A DNA stretch of 64,000 nucleotides from Actinomycetota bacterium (GTDB lineage: Bacteria; Actinomycetota; JAHEXW01): positions 525 to 64,524 of the forward strand of contig JANXYU010000019.1 of assembly GCA_025355855.1 (NCBI GenBank), written 5' to 3'. The translations under genes and the position numbers were made by a program. Below the pieces are notes generated by a model that ran no database searches, was not told the DNA's origin, and worked only from the letters and a program-made list of their open reading frames with translations. Positions 53,140 to 61,935 of the stretch are shown piece after piece (the first letter of the stretch is position 1; every line of letters begins with the position of its first letter).

Positions 53140-53730
53140 CTAGCGCTGGCCGGCGAGGCATTCGGCCTGAGCCAGGTCGGCGGCGGTGTTGACGTTAAAG
53201 AACGACAGGCCATCGGGATCGAGTTCGCTGATGGCCGCGTCGACGAGGTATAAGACGTCGGCGTCGGGGAAGAAGCTGTTGACCTTGAGGTGGCCAAGCG
53301 TAATCTGTTTTTCAATAGCGGGCAGGCAGCTCGTGGCGTAAGCGGCGATGGCCGGATGAGCGCGGTCTTTATATTCAGGGACAACCGCGTCGTGGCCGGC
53401 CAGCTGGTCTAAAAGAAAGTGGAGTAATTCAGGTTTTAAAAAGGGCGCGTCGCACGGCAACAGCAGGTTATCCCGGTCGGATGTTGCCAAAAGGCCTGTA
53501 TAAAGCCCGCCTAACGGTCCCAGATTCGGAGTCTCATCGCGTCTGATCTCGGCGCGGCCTGCCAAAGCCTCATATTTGTCAGGTTCATTGGCAACAACAA
53601 AGACTTCGCCCGGCAATCCGTCGGCCGCGTCTAGCACACGCGTGATTAACGCAACTCCTCCGACTGTCTGCCACGCCTTGTCGCGCCCCAGTCGACGACT
53701 TTGACCGCCGGCCAATATTATTACCGCCAT
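53140..53730 (-). CDS. mobA: Molybdenum cofactor guanylyltransferase
   Basis: ILAGGQSRRLGRDKA, GPLGGL, PCDAP, FFNVNT..DL; SD GGAGG before ATG 53730. Confidence 0.93.
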   Translation of the reverse strand: MAVIILAGGQSRRLGRDKAWQTVGGVALITRVLDAADGLPGEVFVVANEPDKYEALAGRAEIRRDETPNLGPLGGLYTGLLATSDRDNLLLPCDAPFLKPELLHFLLDQLAGHDAVVPEYKDRAHPAIAAYATSCLPAIEKQITLGHLKVNSFFPDADVLYLVDAAISELDPDGLSFFNVNTAADLAQAECLAGQR

Positions 53731-53851
53731 GCGTCTCCTCCCAGGCAAGCCAACCAGCCAGATTATACCATTCAAAACGAACTGGACCGGGCGCGGTTAT
53801 GTGCTAAGATTGTCTTAATGATGTAACTTGTGTTACGGAGGTAGGATTCGT

Positions 53852-54226
53852 ATGTTCGGTTTAGGTATGCCTGAAATCATCGTTATTCTGGTTATCGCGC
53901 TAATAATTTTCGGTCCCACGAAGTTGCCTGAAGTAGCGCGCGGCATCGGCAAAGGCATTCGGGAGTTTAAGGATATGACAATGGGCGTCGAGCAGTCTAT
54001 GAAGGACGAGTTCGAGGCCATTATTAAGGACGGGGAAGAGGCGCCGAGTTCAGCCGATAAGGCGGCGCCGGCCGGCAATGCAACGACTCCAGAGACTACA
54101 GCCGCCGCCGACGCGAAGGCTTGGGCTGCCGATCTGCAGAAACAGGCAGACGCTGCCAAAGCGGACGAAACAAAACCGGACGAGCCGGTCAAACCGGACG
54201 AAAAGACCGGCGACAAGACTAGCTGA
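53852..54226 (+). CDS. tatA: Twin-arginine translocase TatA/B subunit
   Basis: MFGLGMPEIIVILVIALIIFGPTKLPEVARGIGKGIREFK. Confidence 0.92.
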   Translation: MFGLGMPEIIVILVIALIIFGPTKLPEVARGIGKGIREFKDMTMGVEQSMKDEFEAIIKDGEEAPSSADKAAPAGNATTPETTAAADAKAWAADLQKQADAAKADETKPDEPVKPDEKTGDKTS

Positions 54227-54231
54227 CAACC

Positions 54232-54340
54232 GAATAATGACGGGAGCTGCGTTTTTAGGGCGGCTGAGAGGATGCGGGAAGTATTGTTTGGGCGCATCGA
54301 CCGTAGTACTTGATCCGGGTAATGCCGGCGTTAAGGAAAA
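54232..54340 (+). ncRNA. TPP riboswitch aptamer
   Basis: GGGAGC…GCTGAGAG…GACCGT…CTTGATCCGGGTAATGCCGGCGTTAAGGAA upstream of thi genes. Confidence 0.93.
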
Positions 54341-54351
54341 GATCACAAGAG

Positions 54352-54389
54352 GACCTCATCCCGTAAGCAGGATGGGGTTTTTTCTTTTT
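54352..54389 (+). terminator. Riboswitch expression-platform terminator
   Basis: GACCTCATCC / GGATGGGGTT stem followed by T-rich tract just before the thiM SD. Confidence 0.8.
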
Positions 54390-57142: not shown

Positions 57143-58149
57143 TCAAAGAGCTCGGCGAGTTCGGGCTGATCGACTATATCGACGCACTGATCAGAAAAGC
57201 GGACGGCGGCTCCAAAAAAGTCGCGTTGGGCATCGGAGACGACTCTGCGGTCGTCGACGCGCCCCTCGGCGCCAAAATGTTATTAACCACGGATACGATG
57301 GTCGAGAATGTCCATTTCAACAGGCGCTACGTCAAACCCGCGGATATCGGCTATAAAGCCATGGCAGTCAGCGTAAGCGATATCGCCGCTATGGCCGGAA
57401 CCCCGGAATATGCCCTCGTGACGCTGGGCCTGACCGCGGAGGCCGAGGTAGAATTCGTCGCCGGCGTTTATCACGGCCTGATTGACGCGGCGAAAGCTTT
57501 TGGCATTTCAATAGTTGGCGGAGACATGACAAAATCAAACCGGTTTTTCGTCACCGTAGCGTTGACGGGACGGGCGGAAGCGGGGCTAACCAGGCGCCGC
57601 TCCGATGCTAAAGTCGGTGATGCGATCATGGTGACCGGTTCGTTGGGCGGATCAGCCGCGGCTCTTAAACTCTTGAAAGAAGGTGCAAAACCGATGCGCG
57701 GCTGGTTAGCGCACTTGGCTGCCCGGCACACGAGGCCGACGCCGCGGATAACGGAAGCGAGAGCGGCCGCCGCAGCGGGCGCTCGGGCGATGCAGGACAT
57801 AAGCGATGGGTTACTGGCCGATCTTGCTCATATCTGTAGTGCGAGCGGCCTGGGCGCTCGCCTTGATTCAATGGCGGTTCCCGTATTCCCTGAAGCGGCG
57901 AAAGCCGGGTTTAAAGCAGTGGATGCGCAAAGACTGGCAATCACGGGGGGCGAGGACTACGAGCTGCTTTTTACGGCTCCTCCGGCCAAGGTCGACGCCA
58001 TCATCGCGGCGATAGCCCAGGTCGGAGAGACACCCGTAACCGTTGTCGGCACCATGTTTTCGGGCGCAGCCGAAGTCATTGTCGCCGGCCATGAAGGAAA
58101 ACCAATGGTCATGAAGAGGCGAGGCTATGACCACTTCCAGAACGGTTAA
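57136..58149 (+). CDS. thiL: Thiamine-monophosphate kinase
   Basis: GEFGLI, GIGDDSA, SDIAAM, DISDGL..DL.H, GGEDYELLF. Confidence 0.95.
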   Translation: MLVKELGEFGLIDYIDALIRKADGGSKKVALGIGDDSAVVDAPLGAKMLLTTDTMVENVHFNRRYVKPADIGYKAMAVSVSDIAAMAGTPEYALVTLGLTAEAEVEFVAGVYHGLIDAAKAFGISIVGGDMTKSNRFFVTVALTGRAEAGLTRRRSDAKVGDAIMVTGSLGGSAAALKLLKEGAKPMRGWLAHLAARHTRPTPRITEARAAAAAGARAMQDISDGLLADLAHICSASGLGARLDSMAVPVFPEAAKAGFKAVDAQRLAITGGEDYELLFTAPPAKVDAIIAAIAQVGETPVTVVGTMFSGAAEVIVAGHEGKPMVMKRRGYDHFQNG

Positions 58150-58915
58150 GACATTCATCGCGGCAGGCGGCCTCGATCCCAGCGCCGGCGCCGGATTAGC
58201 CGCCGATTTGGCGGCCGCGTGGAGCTTTGGCGTCATCGCGTTGCCAATCGCTACGGCCCTGACTGTCCAAAACTCTCAGCAAGCGAGAGCGTCATACCCG
58301 GTCAATGTGGCCGTCGTGAGGGAGCAACTGGAGACGGTCTATGAAGACTTTCAACCGTCAATACTAAAGACGGGCCTGGTCGGGTCGGCTTTATTAGCAG
58401 TCGCACTGGCCGAGTTTGCGAGCTCCCGCGGTTTGCGGCTAGTCGTCGATCCCGTCCTGCGCGCCTCGTCCGGGCTTGACCTGGCTGATCAGGCTGCCTT
58501 AGCGGCTATCAAGACTACTCTTGTCCCGAACGCATTTGTGTTAACCCCGAACGCGATGGAGGCGGCGTCGTTAACGGGTTTAACCGTCACATCCTTGGCT
58601 GAAGCCGCGGCGGCGGCCCGCCAACTTTACCAGACAGGCGTGTCTAACGTTCTCATAACGGGGGGACATCTCACAACAGGCGACGAGGTAATCGACACAC
58701 TGTATAATGAAAACGGCGTCAGCACCTTTAAGTCGCCGCGTTCGTGCGGCAATGTCAGAGGAACGGGTTGCGCTTTAGCGTCGGCGGTTGCGGCGCGGCT
58801 GGCGCTGGGCGACGACGTTACCGTGGCGATAATCGCGGCTCGCGCCTACGTGGCTCGAGTAATAGAGCAGGCCGTGCCAGCCGGACAAGGATCTCGCCAG
58901 GGTTTACCGGGGTAG
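58127..58915 (+). CDS. thiD: Hydroxymethylpyrimidine/phosphomethylpyrimidine kinase
   Basis: GLDPSAGAGL.ADL, TALTVQN, VVDPV, TPN..EA, GTGC. Confidence 0.9.
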   Translation: MTTSRTVKTFIAAGGLDPSAGAGLAADLAAAWSFGVIALPIATALTVQNSQQARASYPVNVAVVREQLETVYEDFQPSILKTGLVGSALLAVALAEFASSRGLRLVVDPVLRASSGLDLADQAALAAIKTTLVPNAFVLTPNAMEAASLTGLTVTSLAEAAAAARQLYQTGVSNVLITGGHLTTGDEVIDTLYNENGVSTFKSPRSCGNVRGTGCALASAVAARLALGDDVTVAIIAARAYVARVIEQAVPAGQGSRQGLPG

Positions 58916-58944
58916 ACGCGAACTTAAGCTAGCGAAAGGCAAAA

Positions 58945-60204
58945 ATGGCGGAAGAAACATACGACATCACTTTGTTCGTCGACGGCGGGTCGCGCGGCAA
59001 TCCCGGTCCGGCCGGTATCGGAGCCGTTATCGTTCGAGACGGCCGCGCCCCGGCCACTGTATCCGAATTCATCGGGGAAGCGACCAACAACGAGGCCGAA
59101 TATCAGGCCTTGATCGCCGGTCTCAAGAAAGCCGCCGAACTATCTTCCGGCAGCATTCATGTAAAGGCCGACAGCCTGCTAATGGTCAAACAGCTACTTG
59201 GACACTATAAGATAAAGAGCGATCAACTACGGCCTTTGCATGCGGAGGCGGCCGCCCTGCTCAAAACCTTTGCACGGGTCGGCATCGAGCATATACCTCG
59301 AGAGGCCAACGCAGCCGCTGATAAGCTGGTCAACGCGGCGCTGGATAAAGCCACCGGCAAGACAAAAAAGCTTAAACCGGCGGCTAAGCCAATAGTCGAA
59401 TCATCCGTGATCACGTTCCTTTCGGATTTTGGCCATCGGGACGCCTGGACCGCTATCGTGAAAAATACAATGAAAAATATCAACCCGCATGCTGATGTCC
59501 TAAGTATCACCCACGACATTGAGTCCTTTGATGTCCGCCAAGGCGCCTTCGTGTTGGAAACAGCAGTCGCGGATATAAACGCGGCCGTCCATCTAGCGGT
59601 TGTTGACCCCGCTGTAGGAGCCGGCCGGGACCTGATCATCCAAACCAAACGGGGCGATTACCTGGTAGGTCCGGATAACGGCTTGTTGCTGCCGGCGGCA
59701 ACCCGTTTAGGGGGCATTGAGTCCGCGTACGTGATACGAGCCGACGACTCGGCCGCGCCGCCCTGTCCGACATTTCACGCGCGTGACATATTCGCTTTAG
59801 CAGCCGCCGCTCTGGCGGCTGGCGAGGAACCCGGCCTGTTGGCCGACCTTATCGATCCCGTTTCGCTGGCGCCTGCTCCTTACGGTTACGCGACAGTCGT
59901 CGACGGCCAGATAGACGTGGAAATAATTAACATTGACGGATTTGGCACACTGCGCTTAAACGTTGAGGAAGAGGTGGCCCAATCAGCCGGATATTCGCCG
60001 CCGGCGCTCGTCGGGCTTACCTTGGAGGACGCACAACTAGAGCTAAACCTGGGCCGGACATTTACTGACGTAGGGCAAAACGAAATGCTGTTGCTTTTCG
60101 ACTCGAGCGGGTATCTTTGCGTCGCTGTGAACCGCGGTTCGGCGGCGGCCGTTCTCAACGCGACTGCCGGAGACAAAGCGACGTTGCGGCTACTTAAATC
60201 CTAG
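58945..60204 (+). CDS. Fusion: ribonuclease HI + SAM hydrolase/halogenase (DUF62) domain
   Basis: DGGSRGNPG, TNNEAEY, ADS.L, N..AD; then LSDFG..D, VVDPAVG..R, GPDNGLL, TFHARDIF, IDGFG, AVNRGSA. Confidence 0.88.
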   Translation: MAEETYDITLFVDGGSRGNPGPAGIGAVIVRDGRAPATVSEFIGEATNNEAEYQALIAGLKKAAELSSGSIHVKADSLLMVKQLLGHYKIKSDQLRPLHAEAAALLKTFARVGIEHIPREANAAADKLVNAALDKATGKTKKLKPAAKPIVESSVITFLSDFGHRDAWTAIVKNTMKNINPHADVLSITHDIESFDVRQGAFVLETAVADINAAVHLAVVDPAVGAGRDLIIQTKRGDYLVGPDNGLLLPAATRLGGIESAYVIRADDSAAPPCPTFHARDIFALAAAALAAGEEPGLLADLIDPVSLAPAPYGYATVVDGQIDVEIINIDGFGTLRLNVEEEVAQSAGYSPPALVGLTLEDAQLELNLGRTFTDVGQNEMLLLFDSSGYLCVAVNRGSAAAVLNATAGDKATLRLLKS

Positions 60205-60220
60205 GTACGGAGGCTGACTT

Positions 60221-61108
60221 ATGGATGCCGATCTGGACCGCTATCTGGACTACCTAAAGAGTCAGCATCGCTATTCGCCCCGGACAGTCGAAGCGTTCGG
60301 TCGAGACATCAAAACCTTCTTAAGCTTTTTTAAAAAAAACGGGACAGCCGACTTGGCCGAGGTCGACTATCGGCTGTTGCGCCGCTATCTGGCATATTGT
60401 GACACCCTCCGCCTGCAAAAAACGACAATCGCGAGACGGTTGTCTGCCATAAGGTCATTTCTGCGCTTTCTGTGCAATGAGGGCTCGCTCGAATCAAACG
60501 CCGCGCTTCTGGTAAGCTTCCCGAAGAGCGGCTCGACGCTGCCCAAAGTCTTGAGCCGTGACGAGGTTGAGCGCCTGTTGGCCAAACCGCCGATCGAGCT
60601 TAGAGACGGTCTGCGTAACCGGGCGATCATGGAGCTGCTCTACGCTACCGGATTACGGGTCAGCGAACTCGCCGGATTGTCTTTGTCTGATATCGATTTT
60701 CCCGCTCGCGAAATTCGAATAATCGGTAAAGGGGACAAAGAAAGAATCGTATTTTTTACGCCGGTAGCCGATCGTGCTTTGGCCGAATATCTAGCCATAG
60801 GCCGGGTCGACCAAGGGGAAGACAAGTCAGGCGGCGCAGTCTTTCTCAATGATCGCGCCCGGCGCTTGAGTGTGCGCAGTATCCAGAATGTCGTTGACCG
60901 GGCGGCCGGGGCAGGTCGCGTGGGGCGTCATGTCAGCCCTCATATGCTGCGCCATTCCTTCGCGACTCATCTGCTGGAGGAGGGGGCTGATTTGCGAACT
61001 ATCCAGGAGCTTTTAGGCCATGCGGATTTGTCGACTACGCAGATTTACACCCACCTGGACAAAAAGCGTCTGAAGGCCGTCTATCGGCAGGCGCACCCCC
61101 GCGCTTAG
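60221..61108 (+). CDS. xerC: Chromosomal tyrosine recombinase XerC
   Basis: TGLRVSE, GKGDKER, PHMLRHSFATH, QELLGH, TQIYTH, AHPRA. Confidence 0.9.
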   Translation: MDADLDRYLDYLKSQHRYSPRTVEAFGRDIKTFLSFFKKNGTADLAEVDYRLLRRYLAYCDTLRLQKTTIARRLSAIRSFLRFLCNEGSLESNAALLVSFPKSGSTLPKVLSRDEVERLLAKPPIELRDGLRNRAIMELLYATGLRVSELAGLSLSDIDFPAREIRIIGKGDKERIVFFTPVADRALAEYLAIGRVDQGEDKSGGAVFLNDRARRLSVRSIQNVVDRAAGAGRVGRHVSPHMLRHSFATHLLEEGADLRTIQELLGHADLSTTQIYTHLDKKRLKAVYRQAHPRA

Positions 61109-61152
61109 GAGGCTTTAAGACACAGCCAACACGGTTGTAGTATCCTTTATCC

Positions 61153-61935
61153 ATGAGCCAAACCCCGGCGGATGAACACAGCAAAATAATGGAGCTCTGG
61201 CGCCAATATAAAGAAGTAGGCACCCAGGAGCTGCGAGACAAACTTATCCTTCATTACGCGCCACTCGTGAAGTATGTCGCCGGGCGGCTGTACGTCAAAG
61301 TTCCCTCGAATGTCGATCACGGAGACCTGGTCAGCTCCGGTATATTTGGTTTGATTGACGCGATCGACAAGTTCGATCTCTCCAAGAATATCAAATTTGA
61401 GACGTACGCTATTGCCCGTATCAAGGGTGCCATAATCGACGAACTGCGCGCTCTTGACTGGATCCCGCGCTCGGTACGTTTTAAAGCCAAAGAATTGGAA
61501 CGGGCCTACCAAGAGCTCGAAGGCCGTCTAAAGCGCTCGCCAACAGATGAGGAAGTCTGCAAAGAGCTAGGCATTACAAAAGATAAACTGCACGACACGA
61601 TCACGCAGATCGGCAACACCGCAGTCGTCGCGCTCGACGACACTTTCACGGTCGGTAAAGACATGGATGGACGGGTCGGCTTGATAGACATCATTGAGGA
61701 CGAGAGCAGCGCCGAACCCGCCGCGACGTTCGAGATTGAAGAGATGAAAACGTTGTTGGCTCAATCTATCGATCGCTTGCCCGAGCGGGAAAAAACCGTA
61801 GTCGCACTGTATTACTACGAAGGCTTGACATTGAAGGAGATCGGCGAAGTCCTCGGGGTCACTGAATCCCGTGTTTCCCAGATGCACACCAAGGCAATTC
61901 TGCAGCTCAAGGCCAAACTCAAGCAATTCGTGTAA
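61153..61935 (+). CDS. whiG: FliA/WhiG family sigma factor
   Basis: [61 protein letters not shown]. Confidence 0.9.

Follow-up and report, generated by a model that had tools for sequence, protein, structure and literature searches.

A window of 64,000 nucleotides from the genome of an Actinomycetota bacterium (the whole stretch of contig JANXYU010000019.1 that was analyzed) was found to encode a protein in which a type-1 ribonuclease H (RNase HI) is joined, in a single open reading frame (ORF), to an S-adenosyl-L-methionine (SAM) hydrolase of the DUF62 family. We consider it probable that this is a bifunctional protein consisting of two complete enzymes, which most likely work independently of each other, and the architecture looks like one more unrelated partner of a fusion-prone RNase HI rather than a new coupled mechanism. 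The gene and its parts are as follows.

58945..60204, + strand: whole fusion gene, 419 aa plus stop codon, ATG start, no stop inside (ORF list)
58963..59355, + strand: RNase HI domain, residues 7-137, of the Rv2228c-N / LC11 / Halobacterium type (Pfam, PDB, fold)
59356..59400, + strand: Lys-rich flexible linker, residues 138-152 (low predicted local distance difference test [pLDDT] values; composition across the fused proteins)
59410..59832, + strand: SAM_HAT_N domain, residues 156-296, with D161-F162-G163, D221, R228, N245, and H278
59920..60177, + strand: SAM_HAT_C domain, residues 326-411, with the invariant D386-S387-S388

The initial annotation of this DNA, made from the letters and their translated ORFs, had described an uninterrupted frame of 419 aa joining RNase HI to a DUF62 SAM hydrolase, with the catalytic residue sets of both complete, and this was borne out by the ORF list as well as by Pfam, alignment, and PDB comparison. 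RVT_3 (PF13456) matched residues 12-132 with 78.1 bits (cut-off, 21.6) and RNase_H (PF00075) matched residues 7-132 with 43.3 bits (cut-off, 25.8), and these were followed by SAM_HAT_N at residues 156-296 (138.8 bits; cut-off, 26.3) and SAM_HAT_C at residues 326-411 (57.8 bits; cut-off, 25.5), in the order N then C. The RNase H carboxylates are D13 (DGG), E52 (EAEY), D76 (ADS), and D126 (AAD), and the SAM hydrolase triad comprises D221 and R228 in VVDPAVGAGR and H278 in TFHARD; the linker between the domains reads KATGKTKKLKPAAKP. Its Lys-rich character, together with all the motifs that had been named, agreed with the ORF translation and the alignment. The genome of the window is 1.34 Mb in size and 91% complete, and the fusion gene is both its sole RVT_3/RNase_H match and its sole SAM_HAT_N match; an RNase HII gene is present on another contig, and the only protein with His_Phos_1 is encoded apart from the fusion, in a frame of 218 aa.

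The N-terminal half was compared with solved structures by sequence and by fold. The best PDB matches by sequence were the N-domain of Rv2228c (3hst, 9e-29), LC11-RNase H1 (3u3g, 5.7e-27), and the Halobacterium RNase HI (4e19, 1.4e-25), and Sulfolobus tokodaii RNase HI (2ehg) and LC11 4h8k were also among the best solved relatives. The predicted model matched solved RNase HI structures with template modeling (TM) scores (target) of 0.88 to 0.94 in Foldseek, including 0.92 to 0.94 for 3hst and 0.94 for 4e19. The Halobacterium, S. tokodaii, and LC11 enzymes share with the window's domain the compact fold and the DEDD site, at 43 to 45% identity and with a root mean square deviation of 0.8 to 1.9 Å to the model, but they are single-domain proteins or carry short extensions only. 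Since 3u3g and the substrate complex 4h8k differ within the aligned region solely by an Asp-to-Asn exchange that is aligned with D76, this difference fits a catalytic D76. PMC9719913 gives the DEDD carboxylate rule for the RNase H active site and describes the Halo-RNase HI subtype as having neither the basic protrusion for substrate binding nor the catalytic His found in E. coli-type enzymes. By profile, DEDD residues, and predicted fold, the window's domain is a type-1 RNase H, and its activity is predicted from these features.

Regarding the C-terminal half, the top PDB sequence matches were the chlorinases SalL (4e-33) and ClA1 (2.5e-31), followed by DUF62 proteins of Thermotoga, Pyrococcus (PH0463), Methanocaldococcus (MJ1651), and Thermus, and the PDB deposit of MJ1651 is titled '(R)-S-adenosyl-L-methionine hydrolase'. 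Although SalL and ClA1 gave the highest scores, the halogenases (SalL, ClA1/ClA2, and FlA) are without the hydrolase triad; in the printed alignments, the two chlorinases have Tyr at the position of D221, Thr/His at that of R228, and Tyr at that of H278. According to the review PMC10491745, strict conservation of the His-Arg-Asp triad is confined to DUF62 hydrolases, in which it serves to activate the nucleophilic water, and the halogenases do not have it. A halogenase identity was rejected because the Asp-Arg-His triad is present, and the fluorinase equivalog reached 50.8 bits versus a cut-off of 400.

The known DUF62 enzymes used for comparison were PH0463 (1wu8, 2wr8), the TM homologue (2zbu), MJ1651 (2f4n, 22uy), StDUF62, SaciSAMH, and HvSAMH. 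The window's module shares with DUF62 hydrolases the two-domain fold (TM score [target] of 0.89 to 0.90), the Asp-Arg-His triad, and the DFG, PDNG, and DSS motifs, and it is 45 to 47% identical to the nearest stand-alone actinobacterial homologues. It differs in carrying 150 residues of RNase HI plus linker at its N terminus, whereas the known enzymes are stand-alone proteins of ~260 to 280 aa. The (R)-SAM hydrolase equivalogs of NCBIfam, NF058624 and NF053629, which are narrow models of distant lineages, scored below cut-off (130.8 versus 350 and 117.9 versus 470). With both profiles in order and the triad in place, the module is a DUF62 SAM hydrolase, for which we infer activity from sequence. 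According to a preprint (bioRxiv 10.1101/2025.08.29.672840), characterized homologues act on the inactive (R)-sulfonium epimer by hydrolysis, and deleting them raises its share in archaeal cells; by analogy, the window's module probably prefers the same epimer. Among 199 stored proteins of 240 to 300 aa, a set filtered by length alone that may hold a few non-SAM hydrolases, the triad Asp was found in 195 and the triad His in 174, with mostly Q, D, or E in the rest.

To describe how the two halves are connected, we used an AlphaFold2 model built on an alignment of 106 rows (17 fused proteins, 12 outgroup RNase HI from published genomes, 5 stand-alone RNase H, and 72 stand-alone SAM hydrolases). 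The mean pLDDT was 94.9 and the predicted TM score (pTM) was 0.72; both domains exceeded 90, and residues 141-150 had values of ~57, a picture in keeping with two rigid modules that are joined by a flexible tether. No solved chain in the fold search covered both modules, each of which matched solved structures separately. When the RNase H part (residues 1-140) and the SAM hydrolase part (residues 153-419) were submitted to complex prediction with a 17-row alignment, the outcome was 'no answer' with a score of 0.00, which speaks neither for nor against docking.

The linker is 14 to 22 aa long in the 17 fused proteins, with a mean of 17 aa, 5.7 K+R, and 1.7 D+E, and it is basic in all of them, the net charge ranging from +1 to +6. 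We also inspected the C termini of the unfused outgroup RNase HI enzymes, 8 of 16 of which end in Q-x-[ST/E]-[LI]-x (e.g., QDSLF, QESLF, or QTSLFE), often after an acidic tail, and 2 further ones of which end in hydrophobic-F behind acidic residues; neither type of end occurs in any fused protein. The tail-bearing loci are L032, L034, L037, L040, L042, L043, L046, and L048 plus L033 and L036, of which the latter two are from unpublished genomes, one belonging to the set of 8 and the other to the set of 2. The motif resembles the bacterial sliding-clamp (beta-clamp) binding consensus and has a putative role in clamp binding, and a limited literature search found no paper on this clamp-like tail of outgroup RNase HI.

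Next, we determined how widely the fusion occurs. A protein search yielded 19 proteins (P0001-P0019) with both Pfam sets among the best 120 matches, at 43 to 100% identity, and the matches from P0020 down were stand-alone SAM hydrolases of ~270 aa. P0017 and P0019 (308 and 312 aa) are probably cut, because they are short and without SAM_HAT_C, and they were left out of the alignment of the fused family. The 17 full-length proteins that remained come from NCBI, JGI, ENA, and Logan assemblies and are 42 to 81% identical to the window's protein. D13, E52, D76, and D126 are unchanged in all 17, and D161-F162-G163, D221, N245, R280, and D386-S387-S388 are also invariant, while the H278 column holds His in 13 proteins, Asn in 3, and Asp in 1. 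One fused homologue bears the public name 'MAG: SAM-dependent chlorinase/fluorinase [Actinomycetota bacterium]', and another is named 'S-adenosylmethionine hydrolase/ribonuclease HI' in IMG.

The fusion was found in all five species genomes of the organism's class, in each case as one open frame matching residues ~3-416, and the genomes of the class are small (1.3 to 1.8 Mb). The possibility raised at the outset that the relatives would all carry separate genes thus did not hold, and a recent chance fusion was ruled out by the same 5/5 distribution together with 17 full-length fused proteins diverging to 42% identity. Among 36 other genomes of the phylum, 15 had both a SAM hydrolase and a strong RNase HI match (13 without G005 and G021, which are unpublished), and the two genes were joined or adjacent in none of the 15; they shared a contig in two genomes, at distances of 11.3 kb (G019) and 160 kb (G022). 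An even draw of 401 phylum genomes gave 13 matched genomes at E<=1e-60, a threshold at which a much more diverged fusion could be missed, and both domains were matched only in the five class genomes, the remaining 8 being matched at residues ~149-414 only.

Among the best 150 of 1.84 billion cluster representatives, both domains were present in three (P0010, the shortened P0017, and P0018), and the 37 long or multi-stretch matches that were scanned with Pfam all had either tandem RNase H domains, accompanied in some cases by SAP, Cauli_VI, or RVT_1, or nothing but SAM_HAT. A related-locus search of genome contigs returned two distant stand-alone SAM hydrolase loci (Patescibacteria and Woesearchaeota) and no fused relative, and ESM Atlas gave no usable match. 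The genome and representative searches thus indicated that the fusion is rare and, as sampled, limited to one lineage. No description of a SAM hydrolase-RNase H fusion was found in the literature searched, most of it judged by title or abstract; PMC7736814, which had come up as a DUF62-RNase H paper, was discarded as irrelevant, since its match was DUF626.

The junction was also examined in assembled read data. Runs X1/X2 yielded a Logan contig (28,229 nt) that agrees with the window at every position of 58000-61000 and contains no indel, so neither the stop nor the frameshift that the initial annotation had considered for the linker was seen. As these runs are possibly the source sample, the contig match is not independent support for the junction, and independent support for an in-frame junction is instead provided by the fused homologues that occur in the genomes of four other species and in further assemblies. 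Small contigs of runs X3/X4 span 58609-59031 and 59401-59557, which leaves the linker unbridged. The runs listed for 57500-61200 were four DNA runs of a single study, with none of RNA among them.

To see which other partners this RNase HI has, we inspected an outgroup set of 20 RNase HI genes, 16 of which have no added Pfam domain. Two encode a C-terminal His_Phos_1 domain, i.e., the classical Rv2228c architecture, and both lie in genomes of 7.5 to 8.5 Mb; for large-genome Actinomycetota, this supports the statement of the initial annotation that RNase HI of this type is fused to a CobC-like phosphatase. One gene (L047:1995-2786, +, G022) encodes RNase HI with a C-terminal 6-pyruvoyl-tetrahydropterin synthase (PTPS, QueD-like), and in another (L031:867-2414, +, G032) NIF3 (DUF34) stands in frame before RNase HI.

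The Rv2228c / MSMEG_4305 (RnhC) / SCO2299 type (PRK07238) has the same N-terminal RNase HI subtype as the window's protein, and the two are alike both in place, with RNase HI behind a CT398-like zinc-ribbon gene, and in design, with a C-terminal small-molecule enzyme on a variable linker. They differ in the partner, which is a His_Phos_1 phosphatase in the former and a DUF62 SAM hydrolase in the latter. PRK07238 was the best NCBIfam match of the fusion protein, at profile positions 8-140 of 378 (2.3e-42; 145.7 bits versus a cut-off of 326); Pfam found no His_Phos_1 in the protein, which falls short of this full-length RNase H/acid phosphatase equivalog. For MSMEG_4305/RnhC of M. smegmatis, two reports (PMC7466739 and bioRxiv 10.1101/2022.11.09.515703) describe the CobC/acid-phosphatase and RNase H modules as independent in vivo, and one of the two proposes that the RNase H-phosphatase fusion was fixed by drift.

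We then turned to the surroundings of the gene, where the following features are relevant.

58127..58915, + strand: thiD, phosphomethylpyrimidine kinase, last of the thiM-thiE-thiC-thiL-thiD run, its stop lying 29 nt before the fusion gene
60221..61108, + strand: xerC/xerD-type tyrosine recombinase, starting 16 nt 3' of the fusion gene (ORF list, Pfam)
L027:7300-8010, L028:9212-9910, and L029:4581-5291: CT398-like gene in class relatives

The gene order thiM-thiE-thiC-thiL-thiD...fusion-xerC-sigma factor-rpsB-tsf-pyrH is common to all four class relatives, the contig of G001 ending at thiD. The 29-nt distance to thiD, given correctly in the initial annotation (thiD stop at 58915), recurs in G001, which belongs to the same genus as the window. 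G002, G003, and G004 have a gene of 233 to 237 aa between thiD and the fusion, and its product is a coiled-coil protein of the CT398-like kind, which in two of the three genomes also has a C4 zinc ribbon. In 19 of 20 outgroup loci, RNase HI is immediately preceded by such a CT398-like gene, the exception being the NIF3-RNase HI fusion locus, and the same arrangement is found in these three of the four class relatives. No CT398-like homologue, Zn_ribbon_9, or NIF3 was found in the window's genome (91% complete), which suggests that the genus has lost a partner gene that is otherwise widely conserved. Since the RNase HI half occupies the phylum-wide ancestral position, the SAM hydrolase module would have been added at the 3' end of RNase HI, and this probably happened once.

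The number of origins was evaluated with trees of the SAM hydrolase module. In a 96-row tree, the fused rows formed two well-supported clades (11 and 6 rows), and the branches between the two had Shimodaira-Hasegawa-like approximate likelihood ratio test (SH-aLRT) values of only 81 to 82. An approximately unbiased (AU) test under LG+G4, using 43 rows (15 fused, with the near-duplicates P0006 and P0015 dropped, plus 28 stand-alone), gave a p-AU of 0.637 for a single fused group, and the constrained tree was 9.2 log-likelihood (lnL) units above the free search. A single fusion event is the simplest reading of these sequences and was not rejected, though it is not proven.

These data suggested the following course of events. 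An ancestor of the class would have joined a SAM hydrolase gene in frame to the 3' end of a pair made up of the CT398-like zinc-ribbon gene and RNase HI, such that a short basic linker would now take the place of the free C-terminal tail, often an acidic one, that is seen in many of the relatives sampled outside the class. The fusion would then have passed to every sampled descendant, and the later loss of the zinc-ribbon gene in the window's genus would have left it directly after thiD. The N-terminal domain would serve as the organism's only type-1 RNase H, and the C-terminal DUF62 module would hydrolyze SAM to adenosine and methionine by means of the water-activating Asp-Arg-His triad. Given that DUF62 active sites are interfacial, the fusion should form a trimer with three tethered RNase HI domains. 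What the sequences show directly is the architecture, the conserved residues, the distribution, and the order of the genes, while the two activities, the trimer, and the independence of the domains are predictions.

We hold independent activities of the two halves to be most likely because the modules of the M. smegmatis protein act independently, the partners of this RNase HI are diverse, and the class has small genomes. Several points weigh against this view. The retention of the fusion to 42% identity with a short basic linker could reflect selection for linkage and not neutrality; being the sole RNase HI and the sole SAM hydrolase, the gene would be costly to split, which explains its retention and leaves independence unproven. 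The triad His is replaced by Asn in P0012, P0014, and P0015 and by Asp in P0018 (4 of 17), with Asp and Arg kept, so SAM hydrolysis may not be uniformly kept in the fused family. In the free trees, the fused rows fell into two clades separated by weakly supported branches, and the single-origin test was performed on a reduced set. Finally, the authors of PMC12120602 question whether the physiological role of StDUF62 lies in the hydrolysis of (R)-SAM.

An alternative is that the DUF62 module mainly serves to trimerize RNase HI, possibly in a ligand-dependent manner, with the Lys-rich linkers adding multivalent affinity for DNA or hybrids and replacing the docking tail. PMC12120602 places the DUF62 active sites between the protomers of a trimer and reports that StDUF62 is in a monomer/trimer equilibrium that shifts to the trimer when adenosine is added. 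Oligomerization of RNase H through such a trimer, a possibility raised in the initial annotation, is plausible by homology. The alternative is also in keeping with a linker that is basic in 17/17 fused proteins, with an RNase HI subtype devoid of the substrate-binding basic protrusion (PMC9719913), and with tail motifs that occur in 8/16 plus 2 unfused outgroup enzymes and in no fused protein. A trimeric, basic-tethered RNase HI might compensate for the lost docking tail, and this is an inference only. However, the interface, the oligomer, and the clamp-binding role of the tail are all putative, the last being suggested by resemblance to a consensus; the RNase H-CobC precedent shows independent domains; and the phosphatase, PTPS, and NIF3 partners share no obvious logic, though some of these families are oligomeric. 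We therefore regard trimerization as the main function of the module as unlikely.

A more far-reaching version, in which the module would act as a metabolite-responsive switch, appears more doubtful still. Here, a trimer driven by adenosine or (R)-SAM, in the manner reported for StDUF62, would together with the basic linkers give the nuclease a multivalent grip on R-loops or primers in a lineage that has dispensed with the free and possibly clamp-binding tail, and hybrid removal would be tuned by SAM or methylation status. The coupling of SAM status to R-loop processing had been put forward in the initial annotation, and no evidence supporting it was obtained. If the halves were coupled, SAM quality control and the processing of RNA:DNA hybrids would be linked for the first time, and this would bear on the debated physiological role of DUF62 enzymes.

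Another reading of the position behind thiD is that the fusion gene is part of the thi operon and that its SAM hydrolase half cleans SAM by-products for ThiC. The gene begins 29 nt after thiD with no terminator-like site in between, thiC encodes a radical-SAM enzyme, and the order thiM-thiE-thiC-thiL-thiD-...-fusion is kept across the class; cotranscription with the thi operon is possible. Yet the CT398-like gene parts thiD from the fusion in G002, G003, and G004, and direct adjacency to thiD is seen only in the window's genus (G000 and G001), so that the ancestral partner is that gene and not the thi operon, and the thiD adjacency is a secondary effect of its loss, which makes the proposed link to thiC weak. 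No thi or xerC homologue was found in the 1.5- to 2-kb flanks of the 15 outgroup SAM hydrolase loci or of 27 further RNase HI and SAM hydrolase loci. It would, moreover, be odd for the only RNase HI of the organism to be controlled solely by a thiamine pyrophosphate (TPP)-riboswitch-like element with a terminator hairpin, such as precedes the thi genes. A function for ThiC is thus very improbable.

Equally improbable is a reading in which one half has lost its catalysis and is carried along as a pseudo-enzyme scaffold or as a mere leftover. The replacement of the triad His in 4/17 fused proteins and the (R)-SAM hydrolase equivalog scores far under cut-off would agree with such a loss, but this His also varies in about 10% of stand-alone homologues, all checked catalytic and ligand-binding residues are present in the window's protein, and both domains are the only copies in the genome. 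The chance that a frameshift or a chimeric contig joined two genes in assembly or gene calling is negligible, this explanation being refuted for practical purposes by the same in-frame architecture in 4 other species genomes and 17 full-length proteins and by Logan contigs without an indel.

Two complete enzymes that most likely act independently add a SAM hydrolase to the CobC-type phosphatase already known as a partner of RNase HI in Actinomycetota, with PTPS and NIF3 in sister lineages, and this set of varied fusions can be used to ask whether drift or recruitment and oligomerization lies behind them. The finding also concerns annotation: labels such as 'SAM-dependent chlorinase/fluorinase' or 'SAM hydrolase' conceal that these proteins are the sole RNase HI of the organism, and the catalytic triad speaks against a halogenase.

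Upstream of the thi cluster, a TPP-riboswitch-like element was detected ahead of thiM at 54230-54354 (+), with 46.7 bits (E 6.4e-8). Because this is below the Rfam gathering score of 54.3, the element was not caught at the gathering threshold, at which Rfam returned nothing in 40000-64000. The element contains an unusually long insertion in the P3 region and is directly followed by a terminator-like hairpin with a U-run at 54348-54383. Farther upstream lie a TatA/B/E-family gene (53828-54226, +) and a MobA-like nucleotidyltransferase gene (53140-53775, -), both of which are syntenic in G002 and G003.

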